This document shows positions 7,262 to 14,136 of a stretch of DNA of 45,728 nt, piece after piece. How positions within the stretch are numbered: position 1 is the stretch's first letter; each line of letters opens with the position of its first letter. The notes under the pieces are model-generated. The model was not told where the DNA came from. It did no database searches and saw nothing but the letters and a program-made list of their open reading frames with translations. A program made the position numbers and the translations under genes. Origin of the DNA: Clostridia bacterium (GTDB lineage Bacteria; Bacillota; Clostridia; Oscillospirales; CAG-272); NCBI GenBank assembly GCA_017390195.1, contig JAFPCR010000015.1:1-45728 (forward strand), read 5' to 3'.

Positions 7262-7894
7262 TCATTTTGTTCCGAAGATACGATCTCCTGCATCTCCAAG
7301 TCCGGGTACGATATAAGCATGTTCGTTAAGTCTTTCGTCGAGTGCGGCAACAAAGATATCAACGTCGGGATGCTCGGACTGCACCTTCTCAACACCCTCA
7401 GGTGCGGCAACGATATTGACAAGAATAATATCGGTACACCTGTATTTTTCCTTGAGCAAGGAAATGGCATCACAAGCAGATCCGCCTGTTGCAAGCATGG
7501 GGTCTACGACAATTATCTTTCTGTCGCACACCTTGTCGGGCATCTTGCTGTAATATTCGATAGGCTCATGCGATTCATGGTCTCTGTACATGCCTATATG
7601 CCCGACATTTGCGGTCGGGATAAGACGTTGAAATCCGTCTGCCATTCCGAGTCCTGCACGTAAGATCGGAACGATCGTGATCTTCTTTCCGGAAAGCATT
7701 TTAGCATTCATCTTGGTTATGGGAGTTTCGATCACTATATTTTCTAAGGGTAGGTCCCGTGTTACCTCATATCCCATAAGCATTGAAATTTCACTGAGGA
7801 GTTCACGGAAATCCTTTGAACCTGTCTTTTTGTTACGCATGATCGAAAGCTTATGAGTAATTAAAGGATGATTTACGACATTAAGTTTTCCCAT
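7262..7894 (-). CDS. upp: Uracil phosphoribosyltransferase
   Basis: [20 protein letters not shown] is the typical Upp N-terminus, and the PRPP loop is [13 protein letters not shown]. The 31 codons upstream in the ORF track are probably not translated. Confidence 0.9.
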
Positions 7895-8071
7895 ATTAAT
7901 AACCGTGACATCAAAGATGCCACACTTCCTTTCTGCGAAAATGCGGTGTGATAATTTGTTTTTTATCCTATAATCATGTTTATACAAAATCCTCTTTACA
8001 AATCTAATTATACAACTTTTTGTCTTTTTTTCAATAGTTTTTTCTCTGTTTTACAAAATTCGTTTGGGTTA

Positions 8072-8100
8072 TTTACAACGGCAAAAAATAATGGTAAAAT
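8072..8100 (+). promoter_or_regulatory. Candidate sigma-A promoter for mtaB
   Basis: TTTACA (8072..8077), a 17-nt spacer, then TGg-TAAAAT (-10 at 8095..8100). It lies inside the ORF-track N-terminal extension, which supports the ATG at 8162 as the real start. Confidence 0.45.
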
Positions 8101-8161
8101 AGCAGTGGATTTTACCGAAAGAAAGGCAGCTCGCTTCACCGAGCTGATTACGGTACGATAT

Positions 8162-10669
8162 ATGTTTGAAGATAAAAAATATAGTGTTGGAATATATACT
8201 CTCGGGTGCAAGGTCAATCAATATGAGTCCGAAGCGATCGCCGAAGAATTTGAGGCAAGAGGCTTTACAGTTTTAAATGCCGCTGAAGTGTGCGATGTAT
8301 ACGTAATAAATACCTGCACCGTCACGTCGGAGTCAGACCGAAAGGCAAGGCAGTTCATTCGCCGTGCGGTCAAAGAAAATCCCCAAGCACATATTCTCGT
8401 TACGGGTTGTTTTGCTCAAACGCAACCCGAAAACATAGCCGCAATTGACGGCGTAGATTACATATGCGGAAATACAGATAAGATCTCGGTCGTTTCAGCC
8501 GCTGAGACGCTGATAGCATCACATAAAAAAGAAGATACAGTTAAGATTTGTGTGTCTGACATTGAAAATGCCGAATTCGAACAAATGAAAATAACCAAGT
8601 TCGACAGAACACGTGCCTATGTAAAAATAGAGGACGGGTGTGAAAACAAATGCACGTATTGCATTATCCCGAGTGCAAGAGGACGGGTGCGTTCAAAGTC
8701 TCCCGATGATGTGATAGCGGAAGTGACAGGCCTTGTTTCGAACGGATGCCGTGAGGTCGTTTTGACGGGGATAGAAACTGCATCTTACGGCCGAGACCTT
8801 GACGGAACAGATCTGGCGGATCTGCTCTGCTCTGTTGATAAGATCGAAGGAATAGAGCGAGTCCGTCTCGGGTCTCTTGATCCGTCGCTTATTAAGCAGG
8901 ATTTTGTTGACCGTATATGCAAGCTAAAGTCGCTTACACCTCATTTTCACCTTTCACTGCAAAGCGGCAGCAACCGTATCCTTGCCGCAATGAAACGCAA
9001 ATACAACCGTGAGATGGCTCTTACCGCCATCGAAAGACTCAGAGCCGCTATGCCCGATGTTCAGTTTACAACAGACATTATCGTGGGTTTTCCCGGCGAA
9101 ACGGAGGAAGACTTTGCTGATACCGTTGACTTCGCAAAAAGAGCAAGATTTATAAACATACACGTTTTTACATATTCAAAGCGTGAAGGAACCTTGGCGG
9201 CGGTTATGGAGGATCAGATACCCGAAGACGTAAAGCACCGCCGTTCTGTAGAACTGAGTGAATGTGAGCGTCATATACGTGCAGAGATACTCAACGGGTT
9301 TGTCGATCAAAAGTTTGAGGTACTGTTTGAGAGTTATGAGGACGGTTTTGCATACGGACATACCGCATCGTTTGTTGAGGTTAAAGTAAGGAGCGACAAG
9401 TCACTTCATTCTCAGATACACACGGTAAGGATACTGTCGGCAGACGATAAGATGTGCGAGGGCATGATCGTACCTAAGACCAAAAGACACAGATCGTACG
9501 ACGGATTTACCTCTATGTCTTCGGACTCTCTTGGCGTAATGAAAAATGAGTTGGGACTTGCTGTATCGGTATCCACGATGAGATATTGGCAACAGATATA
9601 TTTGTCATATGTAAAGCGTGAGCCTTGTCTTGATGAGATATATTTGCTTGACCGTTTGTTTTTTATCTGCGGTTCACGCCCTGAATGTATCTCCGTATCG
9701 TCATTCAATTCGGAATCTTCTGAATTGTGTTCTTTGTTTGACGACTTGATGTCAAAGCACAAACAAATGTATTCATATATAAAAGCTCCCTGCTCGCTTT
9801 CCGATGCCGCAAATACGGTGAAAAGGTATTTGACCGAATATACCGGATTCTTAAAAAGTGACGGCATAGATAGTTGGAGCAAAAAAACAGGAAAGCTCGG
9901 CAACGGAGACATACTCATTCTCATATCTCCAAATGTTGACGGTGATAACGAAAGCTCCCAAAGTATCATTTCGGAATTTATGTCAAGGCATGCTAAAAAC
10001 ATAGGCTTTGCTCGAAAAGTAGGATATGCCGGTGTGATCGGAACGCTCGCAGAATTCAATATAGGAGCGGCGATCGATCTGTCCTCACTTGCAGGTCCTG
10101 ATGAAAAAGAGCGTATGTATATACAGTCTGAGCTGTTGTGCGACAGTGAGTTTACAAAAAACAAAATTTTGATCTCGGTCAACGGAAAGCATATAGCTGA
10201 AGCAGAACACGACCTGAACACTAAAGGAATCAAGTTCAAAAGGTGCGGTTCAATTAACTCTCTGAACGCTGTTTTTGCACGTTGCCAAAACGCTAAGTCC
10301 GTAACCAATATTCAAATCCCCTTGATCGCAGTACAAAAAGCAATGAGCAAAATACCGCTGGATTTTGATATTCCCTGTTGTGACGAAAGTGGTTTGATAA
10401 ATGTCCCGAATATCGATCCTGACGGAACGGTCGTATGCTCATTAGGTCGAGCGGCGTACAAGGAAGCCGAAAACGCACTTTCCTTTGCCCAAAGCACAAA
10501 AAAAGAAATAATCAGGATAGAGTACCACACCAGAGATCGAAACACCGCTCTTGCGGCAATACTCGGTGCGTATAAGGTACAGGCAGGATACAACCTCGTT
10601 CCCCGCTCCTCTGAGATCATATGTGATACGGCGTTTGGGGCGGATAAGATCGATATCTACACAAAATAA
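8162..10669 (+). CDS. mtaB: tRNA (N6-threonylcarbamoyladenosine(37))-methylthiotransferase MtaB fused to a 398-aa degenerate PurL/AIR-synthase-like C-terminal extension
   Basis: Residues from the ATG at 8162 (MFEDKKYSVGIYTLGCKVNQYES) form a complete MtaB of about 437 aa. It has the UPF0004 cysteines, the radical-SAM motif CENKCTYCIIP and a TRAM domain ending ..KMCEGMIV at 9472. The frame then continues without a stop to 10669 (see findings). Confidence 0.85.
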   Translation: MFEDKKYSVGIYTLGCKVNQYESEAIAEEFEARGFTVLNAAEVCDVYVINTCTVTSESDRKARQFIRRAVKENPQAHILVTGCFAQTQPENIAAIDGVDYICGNTDKISVVSAAETLIASHKKEDTVKICVSDIENAEFEQMKITKFDRTRAYVKIEDGCENKCTYCIIPSARGRVRSKSPDDVIAEVTGLVSNGCREVVLTGIETASYGRDLDGTDLADLLCSVDKIEGIERVRLGSLDPSLIKQDFVDRICKLKSLTPHFHLSLQSGSNRILAAMKRKYNREMALTAIERLRAAMPDVQFTTDIIVGFPGETEEDFADTVDFAKRARFINIHVFTYSKREGTLAAVMEDQIPEDVKHRRSVELSECERHIRAEILNGFVDQKFEVLFESYEDGFAYGHTASFVEVKVRSDKSLHSQIHTVRILSADDKMCEGMIVPKTKRHRSYDGFTSMSSDSLGVMKNELGLAVSVSTMRYWQQIYLSYVKREPCLDEIYLLDRLFFICGSRPECISVSSFNSESSELCSLFDDLMSKHKQMYSYIKAPCSLSDAANTVKRYLTEYTGFLKSDGIDSWSKKTGKLGNGDILILISPNVDGDNESSQSIISEFMSRHAKNIGFARKVGYAGVIGTLAEFNIGAAIDLSSLAGPDEKERMYIQSELLCDSEFTKNKILISVNGKHIAEAEHDLNTKGIKFKRCGSINSLNAVFARCQNAKSVTNIQIPLIAVQKAMSKIPLDFDIPCCDESGLINVPNIDPDGTVVCSLGRAAYKEAENALSFAQSTKKEIIRIEYHTRDRNTALAAILGAYKVQAGYNLVPRSSEIICDTAFGADKIDIYTK

Positions 10670-10728: not shown

Positions 10729-10795
10729 AACCAACGTTATGTAAATAAATTACCAATTATAGATGCAGTAACTGTGCATTGAGGAGGTGTCAAGG

Positions 10796-10975
10796 ATGGC
10801 AAAATGCAGTATTTGCGGAAAGGGCGTTGTTTTCGGACAGAATGTTTCCCATTCGCACAGAAAAACCAACAGAACTTGGAAGCCTAATATTCGCAAGGTA
10901 AAGATGGAAGTAAACGGAACAGCTAAAACTGTTGCGGTTTGCTCTCGTTGCTTACGCACACTCAAAAAGGCGTAA
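10796..10975 (+). CDS. rpmB: 50S ribosomal protein L28
   Basis: MAKCSICGKGVVFGQNVSHSHRKTNRTWKPNI... is a typical L28 sequence. GAGGAGG lies 8 nt upstream of the ATG at 10796. The ORF-track start at 10787 is a GTG inside the RBS. Confidence 0.95.
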   Translation: MAKCSICGKGVVFGQNVSHSHRKTNRTWKPNIRKVKMEVNGTAKTVAVCSRCLRTLKKA

Positions 10976-10997
10976 GTTAAAATTTGATAAAGATCTT

Positions 10998-11028
10998 GGC
11001 AGACCTTGTGTCTGCCGTCTTTATTTTT
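10998..11028 (+). terminator. Rho-independent terminator of rpmB
   Basis: GGCAGAC-cttgt-GTCTGCC followed by gtctttattttt. Confidence 0.7.
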
Positions 11029-11043
11029 GTGAGGTTTTGTTTT

Positions 11044-11754
11044 ATGCTCGCTGTTTTAGATATCAGAACACCCTATCCTGCACAGAAAAAACTTGAATCG
11101 CTTGGCATTGAGGTGATCCTTTTGCCACCATTTTCACTTCTTGCAGAACAGGTCGCATCACACCCCGATATGTTGCTGTTCCCTTTTGGAGACAAAATAA
11201 TATGCCACAGTAAATATTATAACGAGGCAAGATCCGAGATAGATAAGATCGCAAAAGATAAAGAACTTATTTTGTCCGACGAATATGTCTCACCCGTATA
11301 TCCGCATGATGTGCTTTTTAATGCCGCTGTTTTGGGAGACAGATATTTGATATGCAACAAAAAAAGAGTATCTTCAAAAATACTCGATGCGGCTTCAGAA
11401 TATGATCTGTCAGTCATTCACGTAAATCAGGGATATTCGAAATGCTCCTCCTGTATCGTATCGGATAACGCATTGATCACTTCCGACAAGACTATATTCG
11501 ATTCGGCAAAGAAATTGGGAGCTGACACGCTCTTTGTCGAAAATAAAAACATATCGCTCCCCGGATATGACTGCGGATTTATCGGCGGTTGCAGCGGTCT
11601 GTGTGAATATACCAACGAGATATTTTTTTGCGGTGACGTCGGATCGCACCCGAACGGAGATGAGATTATCTCGTTTTGCAAAAATCACGGTAAAACTCCC
11701 GTGATGCTTACACAGGAACGTCTTTTCGATATTGGGAGCATATTTTTTATATAA
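11044..11754 (+). CDS. Conserved uncharacterised protein, possibly DUF6873 / guanidino-group-modifying-enzyme-like fold
   Basis: 236 aa from the ATG at 11044. The upstream part of the ORF-track ORF overlaps the rpmB terminator. Features include HPDM near the N-terminus and FIGGCSG near the C-terminus, a candidate His/Cys pair. The family assignment comes from memory of sequence patterns and not from a search. Confidence 0.45.
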   Translation: MLAVLDIRTPYPAQKKLESLGIEVILLPPFSLLAEQVASHPDMLLFPFGDKIICHSKYYNEARSEIDKIAKDKELILSDEYVSPVYPHDVLFNAAVLGDRYLICNKKRVSSKILDAASEYDLSVIHVNQGYSKCSSCIVSDNALITSDKTIFDSAKKLGADTLFVENKNISLPGYDCGFIGGCSGLCEYTNEIFFCGDVGSHPNGDEIISFCKNHGKTPVMLTQERLFDIGSIFFI

Positions 11755-11815: not shown

Positions 11816-12943
11816 TCAGAGTTTTCTTCCCTCTTCTACCATAATGGGAAGTGTCGGAATTCCAAGCAGTGATACATTTTCGCCTATCATCACGTTTTTG
11901 TCTGTGATGACCGATGAAAGGCACGTGTTGCATCCTATATATGTATCAGAGAAGATTATACTGTTCTTTACGCTACTTCCGCTCGCTATATGCACACCCG
12001 GAAAAATTATGGAATTTTCAACGTTTCCGGCGATATAGCACCCGTCTGCAATAAGTGAATTATGAACACTTGCGGTCTTTGTATACCGAGTAGGTGCAGA
12101 ATTTGTTACCTTTGTCATAACAGAGAAGTTACTGCGTTCGAACAGAGAAAAATAAAGATCTTTGTCTTCTACGATCGCCATTCCGGCATTGTAATAATCA
12201 ATAAGTGACGATACACCTATGAATGTTTCAGCAAATCTGTATGTTCCTATCTTATCCTTATGCTCTGTCCTTCCTCTCAACAGCATTTCATGCGAGAAAG
12301 AGGAGTATCCTCTCATCATGGCATCATTTATCATGCTTATAAGATGTTCACGGGTAGCAACGTATATATTAAGATTGACGCTGTCGGAATCGGTCTTGCC
12401 TACGTTCTTTGCAATCCCGGTAATAAATCCGAATTCGTCAGTCTCGACTATTGAGTTGTCTGCCGAATCTGTGGCTCTTCCTATTCCGAGCGTAATATCC
12501 GCACCGCTCTTTATATGTGATCTGACTATATCGGTCAGATCGGTGCTGAATATCCTGTTACAGTCACAGAGAACTATGTATTCATTCTTTATTTTTGATA
12601 TTGAGTAGCTTATGCTTTTAAGCGATTCGAGTCTTGAGACATACTGCTCCGAGTCAGATGTTGCATATGCAGTTATATAGGGAGAAAGCATTTTTATTCC
12701 GCCGTTATGCCTTGCCAGATCCCAATCCTTTCCCGAACCTATATGCTCGACAAGCGAGTTATAATTGTGATGTGAAATAACGTATATATCGTCAATACCC
12801 GAATTTACCATTGATGAGAGCGGGAAATCAATAAGTCTGTATCTTCCGCCGAACGGTATTGCACCTGTAGTCCTCTTTTTTGTAAGTTCATGGATGTTTC
12901 TGTCGTGAAGATTTGAAAAAATAATTCCTGAAACTCCGGTCAT
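11816..12943 (-). CDS. glgD: Glucose-1-phosphate adenylyltransferase, regulatory subunit GlgD
   Basis: 375-aa GlgC paralogue that lacks the GGxGxRL loop (its N-terminus is [15 protein letters not shown]). It has a left-handed beta-helix C-terminus. Its start overlaps the glgC stop by 4 nt. Confidence 0.85.
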
Positions 12944-14136
12944 ATGCCGTTACCTCCTGTTCCCGTGACAGTAAAATTGTCCTTTATTATTTTCCTGTCT
13001 CCTATAACGGTAAGCTCGTTTGCAATTCCCGCCTGGCGTCCTATCTGAGCCTTTTTACCTATTACGCTGTCACTTCCGACGATCGCATTTGTAACTATCG
13101 CTCCGTCGCCTATAAAAGCGTTAAAAAGTATTACAGAGTCTCTTACACAGGCGTTTTCAGAAACGGTTGCTCCGCTGAAGATCACAGAATTTTCGACCTG
13201 TCCGTATATATGACAGCCCTCCGTAATGACTGAGTTGCGTATTGATGAGTCCTTACCTATTACCTGCGGAGGCAGAGCTTCATTTCTTGATAGTATCTTA
13301 GGCATATCTAAAGAAAACAGGTCAAAATCGGGATCTTCACCAAGTAATTCCATGTTTGCCGACCAAAAGCTTTCGGGAGTTCCAACGTCTTTCCAATATC
13401 CTTCGAACTTGTATGCGATCATCTTACAGCCGTCGGAAAGCATTTTCGGAATGATATTCTTTCCGAAGTCCTTTGATGATTCGGGATCGTTTTCGTCAGA
13501 CACGATATATCTCAGCAATGCCTCTGTTCTAAAAACATATACGCCCATTGAGGCAAGTGTAGACTTAGGCTCTTTTGGCTTTTCGGCAAATTCGGTTATT
13601 TCGTCGCTTTCATTGACAGACATTATTCCGAATCTGCTCGCCTCGGAAAGCGGAACATCTATAACGGCTATCGTACAGTCGGCGTTCTGCTCCTTATGGC
13701 GTGTTATCATCTCCGAGTAATCCATTCTGTAGATATGATCTCCCGACAGGATCATAACGTTATCGGGTGAATATCTGTTTATAAAGTTTATGTTTTTGTA
13801 TATGGCGTTGGCTGTTCCCGTGTACCATTCTATACCCTTGCCCGACTGATACGGTGGAAGTATAGTTACGCCACCTCGGTATCTGTCAAGATCCCACGGC
13901 TGACCGTTACCGATATACTCGTTAAGCTCGAGTGGCTGATATTGGGTGAGTACACCTACGGTGTCTATTCCCGAATTAACGCAGTTTGAAAGAGTGAAGT
14001 CGATAATTCTGTACTTCGCTCCGAAAGGAAGTGCAGGTTTGGCTGTGTTCTGAGTAAGCTCCCCGAGGCGGCTTCCCTGTCCGCCAGCCAAAAGCATGGC
14101 AATAATACTTTTTTTAAAGGTTTTAATATGTATCAT
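12940..14136 (-). CDS. glgC: Glucose-1-phosphate adenylyltransferase GlgC
   Basis: Motifs [20 protein letters not shown] and an LbH C-terminal domain. The start codon is uncertain because the SD abuts the ATG at 14136 (see findings). Confidence 0.9.

Follow-up and report, generated by a model that had tools for sequence, protein, structure and literature searches.

On contig JAFPCR010000015.1 of a Clostridia bacterium (assembly GCA_017390195.1), the gene for the tRNA methylthiotransferase MtaB continues in frame, past the end of a complete MtaB, for a further 398 codons. (The whole 45,728-nucleotide stretch that was analysed is called the window here.) The extension is a truncated, degenerate member of a protein family, here called X, the MtaB-associated PurL-derived family. 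X arose from PurL, the phosphoribosylformylglycinamidine (FGAM) synthase of purine biosynthesis. Together, the evidence makes it probable that the fusion consists of an MtaB and a non-catalytic accessory module of PurL origin.

The listed open reading frame (ORF) is a single, uninterrupted frame on the plus strand, 7976..10669. Homologues place the mtaB start at the ATG at 8162 (MFEDKKYSVGIYTLGCKVNQ), so that the product has 835 amino acids (aa). An ATG at 7976 is used instead by the mechanical ORF and by the public protein P0001; it adds 62 low-complexity residues. This added segment (7976-8161, plus strand) overlaps the listed upp ORF (7262-7987, minus strand), whose own start, a TTG at 7987, probably lies too far upstream as well; the match to uracil phosphoribosyltransferase starts at residue 37 of that ORF. 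The MtaB part ends with ...CEGMIV at 9472, and the frame then runs on for 398 codons (9473-10666) to a stop codon at 10667-10669. A first-pass annotation, made by reading the sequence without database searches, had described a complete MtaB followed by 398 codons with no stop, and both its coordinates and its count were exact. The gene is composed of the following parts:

8162..9472, plus strand: MtaB catalytic module, residues 1-437, with UPF0004/methylthiotransferase N-domain, radical-SAM core carrying CENKCTYC, and TRAM-like C-terminal barrel (TIGR01579, Pfam).
9473..10669, plus strand: the extension, 398 codons, and its stop codon; a truncated X member (family hidden Markov model [HMM], E=6.4e-57; Foldseek).
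9473..9847, plus strand: FGAR-AT-linker-like helical block, with the initial strand and helix left over from A1, extension aa 1-125 (TIGR01857; Salmonella PurL 183-228).
9824..9889, plus strand: low-confidence spacer at the place of the PurL A1 catalytic core, extension aa 118-139 (predicted local distance difference test [pLDDT] <50).
9905..10372, plus strand: AIRS_C-type (PurL B1-like) alpha/beta domain, extension aa ~145-300 (family profile against PurL B1/B2; pLDDT 73-91).
10430..10633, plus strand: degenerate A2-type remnant with the LGxYRxQxEL helix (HMM positions 403-435, independent E-value [i-E]=1e-4).

Residues 1-437 are a complete canonical MtaB. They match TIGR01579 with 459.5 bits against a cutoff of 357.05, and the match (residues 11-424) spans all of the profile, positions 1-416 of 416. 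Pfam recognises the UPF0004 and Radical_SAM domains that the first-pass annotation had named. Pfam makes no call for the third, TRAM, in the MtaB part, but the region is covered by the full-length TIGR01579 match and by beta-strands at residues 384-436 of the predicted model. An alignment of 33 fused homologues shows that the six cluster cysteines, C16, C52, C83, C160, C164, and C167, are invariant. These comprise the three of the auxiliary-cluster (UPF0004) domain and the CxxxCxxC motif of the radical-SAM core. The MtaB part is presumably an active methylthiotransferase of N6-threonylcarbamoyladenosine at tRNA position 37 (t6A37). Characterised MtaB proteins end after the TRAM domain, at about 430-450 aa. 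The first 437 residues of the fusion are canonical in comparison with MtaB/YqeV (TIGR01579), and it is the 398 further residues that set the protein apart. An antisense ORF of 298 aa (9412-10308, minus strand), reported within the extension, is most likely a by-product of coding-strand composition.

The window's extension by itself says little about its origin. Scanned alone, it has no match in Pfam and none among PDB sequences (phmmer), and a word-indexed protein search gave no useful match; relatives came only from an exhaustive HMMER search. Its residues 7-63 match positions 163-218 of TIGR01857, the model for the clostridial-type single-chain FGAM synthase, with E=0.021 for the whole extension and 0.0026 for the N-terminal piece. 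The B1-like and C-terminal pieces, scanned separately, match nothing in NCBIfam. Thus, the window's own sequence reaches PurL directly through the linker only, and the rest of the link is made by transitive homology and structure; the PurL assignment of the B1-like and C-terminal pieces rests on the family profile and the structural model.

The relatives provide this link. The exhaustive phmmer search with the extension yielded 69 free-standing proteins, most of them 480-820 aa long, that align to the extension at their N-termini. An HMM of 63 standalone X proteins matches the window's extension with E=6.4e-57 (positions 6-305 and 403-435 of 571), and the N-terminal 300 residues of the extension match it with i-E=2e-52. 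When this 63-protein profile is run against the PDB, the significant matches are to PurL only: Salmonella PurL with E=1.1e-6, in both AIRS_C-type domains (503-597 and 882-1009), and Thermotoga maritima PurL at 220-338 with E=1.1e-4. A profile of the fused extensions matches Salmonella PurL 183-228, the helix pair directly before SEHCRH. All 10 of the standalone members tested match TIGR01857 colinearly, with E-values down to 6.9e-25; X residues ~7-140 map to positions 160-284, and ~376-605 to positions 708-931. Across the family, Pfam detects AIRS_C in 6 of 63 members (best E=9.3e-9) and FGAR-AT_linker in 3 of 63.

Structural comparison gives the same answer. An AlphaFold model of the extension was built on 19 fused extensions (pLDDT 71.9; predicted template modelling score [pTM] 0.64). 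In a Foldseek search of the PDB, the top 26 matches to this model are FGAM synthetases, including Salmonella large PurL (the best, E=1.1e-9), the small PurL proteins of T. maritima and Thermus thermophilus, and human PFAS. HypE, ThiL, PurM, and SelD follow, with E-values from 7e-5 to 1e-3. Among the best 50 of 53 matches (E≤1e-3), 48 are PurL, HypE, ThiL, PurM, or SelD; the other two are chains of 2yxz. Foldseek thus recognises an AIRS_C-type alpha/beta fold at the level of the PurM superfamily, with a modest TM-score of 0.43 on the query.

These results show that the X family derives, at the level of both fold and sequence, from a large, clostridial-type PurL. It is very unlikely that the resemblance is due to chance or to the generic similarity of alpha/beta folds, with the extension an unrelated domain. 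The lack of a Pfam match for the extension alone, its E=0.021 to TIGR01857, the failure of the B1-like and C-terminal pieces to match NCBIfam directly, and the TM-score are what one would expect of an unrelated domain, but three independent routes (structure, profile against the PDB, and curated HMMs, the last in 10 of 10 members with E-values to 7e-25) agree colinearly, and the match lists hold essentially only PurL and the PurM superfamily. The first-pass annotation had taken the extension for a relic of the PurL/AIRS fold with a clostridial-type PurL linker, and both parts of this idea are borne out, the former by the Foldseek matches and the latter by the alignments to TIGR01857 163-218 and Salmonella PurL 183-228. 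The segments it had compared to AIRS_C-type sequence (ARKVGYAGV... and SELLCDSE...) are the ones that the family profile aligns to PurL B1/B2. Of the profile and structure searches it proposed, Foldseek returned PurL, and Pfam on the extension alone returned nothing.

The family's matches to TIGR01857 start at profile position ~150-165, and thus the PurS-like N-domain is absent. The position aligned to SEHCRH in PurL is a non-histidine residue in the family, and direct reading of the translation finds neither an HCRH nor an HNHP motif in the extension. About 50 residues, partly of low confidence in the model, stand where TIGR01857 has about 200 for the A1 core, in agreement with the earlier claim that the catalytic histidine motifs are gone and the AIRS N-domain is mostly deleted. 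The spacer is a gap relative to the standalone HMM at positions ~130-160, and the colinear map has no room for A1. Against a TIGR01857 cutoff of 1057 bits, standalone members score at most 86.8 and the window's extension 12.3-15.3. The fusion protein is not a member of PurL (TIGR01857, TIGR01735, and PRK01213), because it falls below the cutoffs and lacks the A1 core, the N-domain, and the glutaminase. Neither Pfam nor NCBIfam holds a dedicated model for the X family; in public databases free-standing X is named "hypothetical protein" and the fused forms plain "MtaB".

In a free-standing X, the linker helices are followed by a B1-type AIRS_C domain and then by the A2-type remnant and a domain of B2 type; some members also have a small additional C-terminal domain. 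The block of extension aa 1-125 is the best-conserved part of the family, with F12, P51, E55, D60, D91, K95, P106, and Y119 standing out, and the model is most confident there (pLDDT 87-93 at aa 11-60). In the profile numbering, the conserved columns of X are mostly hydrophobic or Gly/Pro, together with the charged residues E58, D63, D94, K98, R416, and E420; the window retains the N-terminal conserved set. No conserved Cys, His, Asp-cluster, Gly-rich, or nucleotide-binding-like motif is found across the family's columns. The family is acidic, with a median isoelectric point (pI) of ~5.3. In standalone X, the A2 region and the domain that follows it map to TIGR01857 positions 708-931. The window's copy lacks HMM positions ~436-571 (about 135), which correspond to the B2-type terminal domain, and at the A2 helix it reads LGAYKVQAGY compared to the family's LGxYRxQxEL, so that the near-invariant R416 is replaced by K and E420 by G. 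With the missing B2 domain and the altered helix, the window's extension is therefore a truncated, degenerate member. The first-pass annotation had found its last ~170 residues unrecognisable. This is true only in part, as a weak A2-type helix remnant (LGAYK, extension residues 355-387) lies within them.

About one third of the standalone X proteins, those of 690-940 aa (P0130, P0138, P0157, and P0174, for example), carry an extra C-terminal domain of 125-260 aa. It shows an alternating strand/helix pattern and occupies the place of the PurL glutaminase domain. A degenerate glutaminase was suspected, but no glutaminase turned up when a profile of this domain from the ~700-aa standalone X was searched against the PDB.

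The fusion itself is present in more than one assembly. An independent metagenome assembly (locus L017, ERZ28633373) has this fused ORF on a 119-kb contig, with 99% identity, and a second species (L016, SRR6824176), whose synteny is identical to that of the window, has it with 58% identity. In all three, Lnt, an RluD-like pseudouridine synthase, and Upp are encoded on the minus strand, followed by mtaB-X, (L28), DUF6873, and glgD/glgC. The cluster of fused proteins has 41 member sequences. The fusion junction is conserved: CEG(M/V)IV precedes a basic stretch, and the X start codon can no longer be traced. It is therefore extremely unlikely that a stop codon was missed, or a frameshift introduced, near 9470 so that two separate genes appear as one. 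Most relatives do have separate genes 0-80 bp apart, which a one-base error could in principle join, but such an error would not recur in L017 and L016 and in a 41-member cluster, nor would it leave a conserved junction from which the X start codon cannot be traced. The inspection of other assemblies near 9470, which the first-pass annotation had suggested, thus found the fusion intact.

X is linked to mtaB where the two are not fused. At all 14 loci with a free-standing X (L002-L015), mtaB lies directly upstream on the same strand, with a spacing that ranges from a 4-bp overlap (L003 and L004) to ~80 bp. Fused genes were found in the window, L016, L017, and L018/L019. The window's fused lineage comprises the window, P0001, and P0002. 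A second, larger clade consists of MtaB-X proteins of ~855-880 aa and includes at least 31 representatives of 90%-identity clusters; it has the window's synteny, and one of its proteins, P0049, is found on 14 contigs. Both fused lineages are without the B2-type domain. Each is monophyletic, in 100 and 100 of 100 bootstraps for the MtaB part and in 97 and 100 of 100 for the X part, the latter computed with bounded distances, whereas a single group of all fused proteins appears in none of the 100 bootstraps for the MtaB part and in 3 of the 100 for the X part. Since the fused groups are not sisters, the trees suggest that fusion took place twice independently; repeated fissions are the less parsimonious alternative. 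The first-pass annotation had spoken of a domain recruited to MtaB. This was not a one-off recruitment, given that the extension is a truncated copy of a widespread mtaB-adjacent gene and that a second fused clade exists. Its question of whether the fusion is conserved or X occurs elsewhere as a separate ORF is answered by both: two fused lineages and 14 of 14 adjacent standalone loci. A search with a narrower, N-terminal X alignment found 7 GTDB species, all represented by metagenome-assembled genomes (MAGs), and in the sampling so far X occurs only in MAGs of uncultured Clostridia/Eubacteriales.

One MtaB homologue of a different kind was also seen. P0018 (814 aa) is 60% identical over the MtaB part, but its C-terminal extension is completely different and consists of dockerin repeats (PF00404) together with Cys-rich segments. 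It represents another fusion, unless its 4.4-kb contig is chimeric.

Comparison of fused sequences gives a measure of constraint. Between the window and L016, the MtaB parts are 75.7% identical in amino acids, with a proportion of nonsynonymous differences (pN) of 0.16 and a saturated synonymous proportion (pS) of 0.71, while the extensions are 39.5% identical over 380 aligned codons, with pN 0.42 and pS saturated at 0.76. Between the window and L017, the extensions are 98.7% identical (pN 0.005), with 6 synonymous and 5 non-synonymous changes. The frame is open throughout the extension in the sequences compared. The extension thus evolves about three times faster than MtaB and yet is under purifying selection.

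A mechanism that would account for these observations is as follows. X descended from the clostridial-type single-chain FGAM synthase, losing the PurS-like N-domain and the catalytic A1 core with its SxHCRH and ETHNHP histidine motifs. In this clade it is usually a separate gene, translationally coupled to mtaB. In the window's lineage, loss of the mtaB stop codon and of about eight N-terminal X codons created one polypeptide, and the B2-type domain disappeared as well. X most likely associates physically with MtaB, presumably through the conserved linker and B1 part, which both fused lineages retain. It may then serve as a scaffold, a stabiliser, or a substrate- or partner-recognition element for the formation of 2-methylthio-t6A (ms2t6A), rather than carry out PurL-type chemistry. 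X is most likely without catalysis, because the conserved columns are mostly structural, no His, Asp-cluster, Gly-rich, or Cys motif is conserved, and A1 is reduced to a spacer. This agrees with the first-pass view of a pseudoenzyme domain on a tRNA methylthiotransferase, in that the A1 core and histidine motifs are lost and the PurL scores are at most 87 bits against 1057. Together, the conserved gene pair, the translational coupling, and the two non-sister fusions point to X as a partner dedicated to MtaB. Two other roles for X were considered and set aside: its acidic pI speaks against generic RNA binding, and a sulfur-relay role was rejected since no Cys is conserved across the family.

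Several observations weigh against a functional, non-catalytic partner. A close relative, L001 (GCA_054291365.1, 6001-7491), has mtaB and then DUF6873, with X absent, and therefore X is not universally required and is dispensable in some genomes; part of the clade has either lost it or never acquired it. The C-terminal decay in the window's lineage (the replacement of R416 and E420 and the loss of B2), together with the roughly threefold faster rate, fits a weakening function. The full-length AlphaFold model (pTM 0.56) has no confident interdomain packing, and so the MtaB-X interaction is inferred from the gene fusion. Lastly, the acidity of X argues against a simple tRNA-binding role. Some of these points are also what one would predict if the extension in the window's lineage were a decaying, functionally neutral remnant, left after loss of the stop codon and drifting toward loss. 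The identity of 39.5% in the extension versus 75.7% in MtaB between two fused species, the lost terminal domain with the substituted R416 and E420, and the absence of X from L001 all fit such a remnant. We nevertheless consider it unlikely, since the ORF has stayed open over ~380-398 codons in two species that are only 39.5% identical there, pN in the extension (0.42) is well under the saturated pS (0.76), the first 300 residues still match the family with i-E=2e-52, and an independently fused clade with the same truncation has been kept in at least 31 cluster representatives.

About as improbable is the idea that X, as a module of the PurM superfamily, is still an enzyme or still binds nucleotides and so contributes a further step to the pathway. 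It could, for instance, use ATP to activate or cyclodehydrate the threonylcarbamoyl group, converting t6A/ms2t6A to the cyclic form, ct6A, or to handle the sulfur donor of the auxiliary cluster. The fold relatives found by Foldseek (PurL, PurM, HypE, SelD, and ThiL) are ATP users; members of this superfamily use ATP to activate an oxygen or chalcogen. The tight coupling to mtaB fits a shared pathway, and the standalone forms retain the A2+B2 half, which in Salmonella PurL contains an auxiliary ADP site (structure 1t3t). A cyclic product, ms2ct6A, exists in Firmicutes (PMC5389704). These arguments are opposed by the deletion of the A1 core with the PurL catalytic histidines, by the lack of any His, Asp-cluster, or Cys conserved across the family, by the absence of B2 from both fused lineages and of the near-invariant R416 and E420 from the window, and by scores that are only ~1-8% of the cutoffs of every PurL model. 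A specific version, in which X binds ATP and performs or controls a second step on the same nucleoside, either a PurM-like cyclodehydration to ms2ct6A without the E1-like TcdA or an ATP-gated loading of sulfur into the auxiliary cluster, is a long shot. If true, an enzyme of purine biosynthesis would have given rise to a novel enzymatic route of tRNA modification.

Two genes lie immediately downstream of the fusion in the window:

10787..10975, plus strand: ribosomal protein L28 gene (Pfam Ribosomal_L28, E=9.9e-24), at the same place in L004-L007.
10984..11754, plus strand: DUF6873 gene (Pfam DUF6873, E=1.4e-66).

At nearly all of the related loci examined (L001-L007 and L016-L019), a DUF6873 gene comes after mtaB(-X)(-L28), although L008 has tyrS instead, and the DUF6873 gene may be part of the same conserved operon as mtaB(-X). 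Farther downstream, at 11816-14136 on the minus strand, are two adjacent NTP_transferase/LbH genes that are glgD- and glgC-like (glycogen synthesis). These are present in the window, L016, and L017 and not at the other loci, and thus mark the window's sub-lineage. At one unfused locus (L005, 8521-9688), two genes of the t6A pathway, tsaE and a member of the TsaD/TsaB family, are found ~1.4 kb beyond mtaB-X on its downstream side; their products make the substrate of MtaB.

Among known proteins, PurL resembles the extension most closely in structure. Like X, the clostridial-type PurL (TIGR01857) and the large PurL of Salmonella (1t3t) have linker helices before A1, AIRS_C-type B domain(s), and an A2-type helix region, in colinear order. 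Unlike PurL, X has no PurS-like N-domain and no functional glutaminase domain, and its A1 core and histidine motifs are deleted; the window's copy is also without B2. In addition, X is tied genetically to mtaB and not to pur genes. PurM, HypE, ThiL, and SelD have the AIRS_C-type fold in common with X and are weaker Foldseek matches than PurL. They are homodimeric, active, ATP-utilising enzymes with intact N-domains, whereas the window's X has no complete N-type domain.

We know of no radical-SAM methylthiotransferase (MiaB, RimO, or MtaB/CDKAL1) with a dedicated protein partner. A literature search turned up no paper that connects MtaB to PurL or to AIR synthase, and none on a pseudoenzyme form of FGAM synthase; the X family and the MtaB-X architecture are, to this extent, undescribed. 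E. coli YcaO, a member of an ATP-dependent amide-activating family once proposed to aid the sister methylthiotransferase RimO, is not used here as a precedent for an accessory factor. It was dropped as weak and superseded, and it has no homology to X: modification by RimO fell only from 99% to 84%, and the role currently ascribed to YcaO is uL16 thioamidation (PMC13063428).

X thus appears to be a case in which a core enzyme of purine biosynthesis, PurL, has been duplicated, stripped of its catalytic core, and repurposed, which would make it useful for the study of pseudoenzyme evolution. It accounts for ~400 unannotated residues in many MAG proteins labelled "MtaB", as well as for a set of "hypothetical proteins", and defines a family currently missing from Pfam and NCBIfam. 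A dedicated partner of MtaB would concern a clade of gut and environmental Clostridia.

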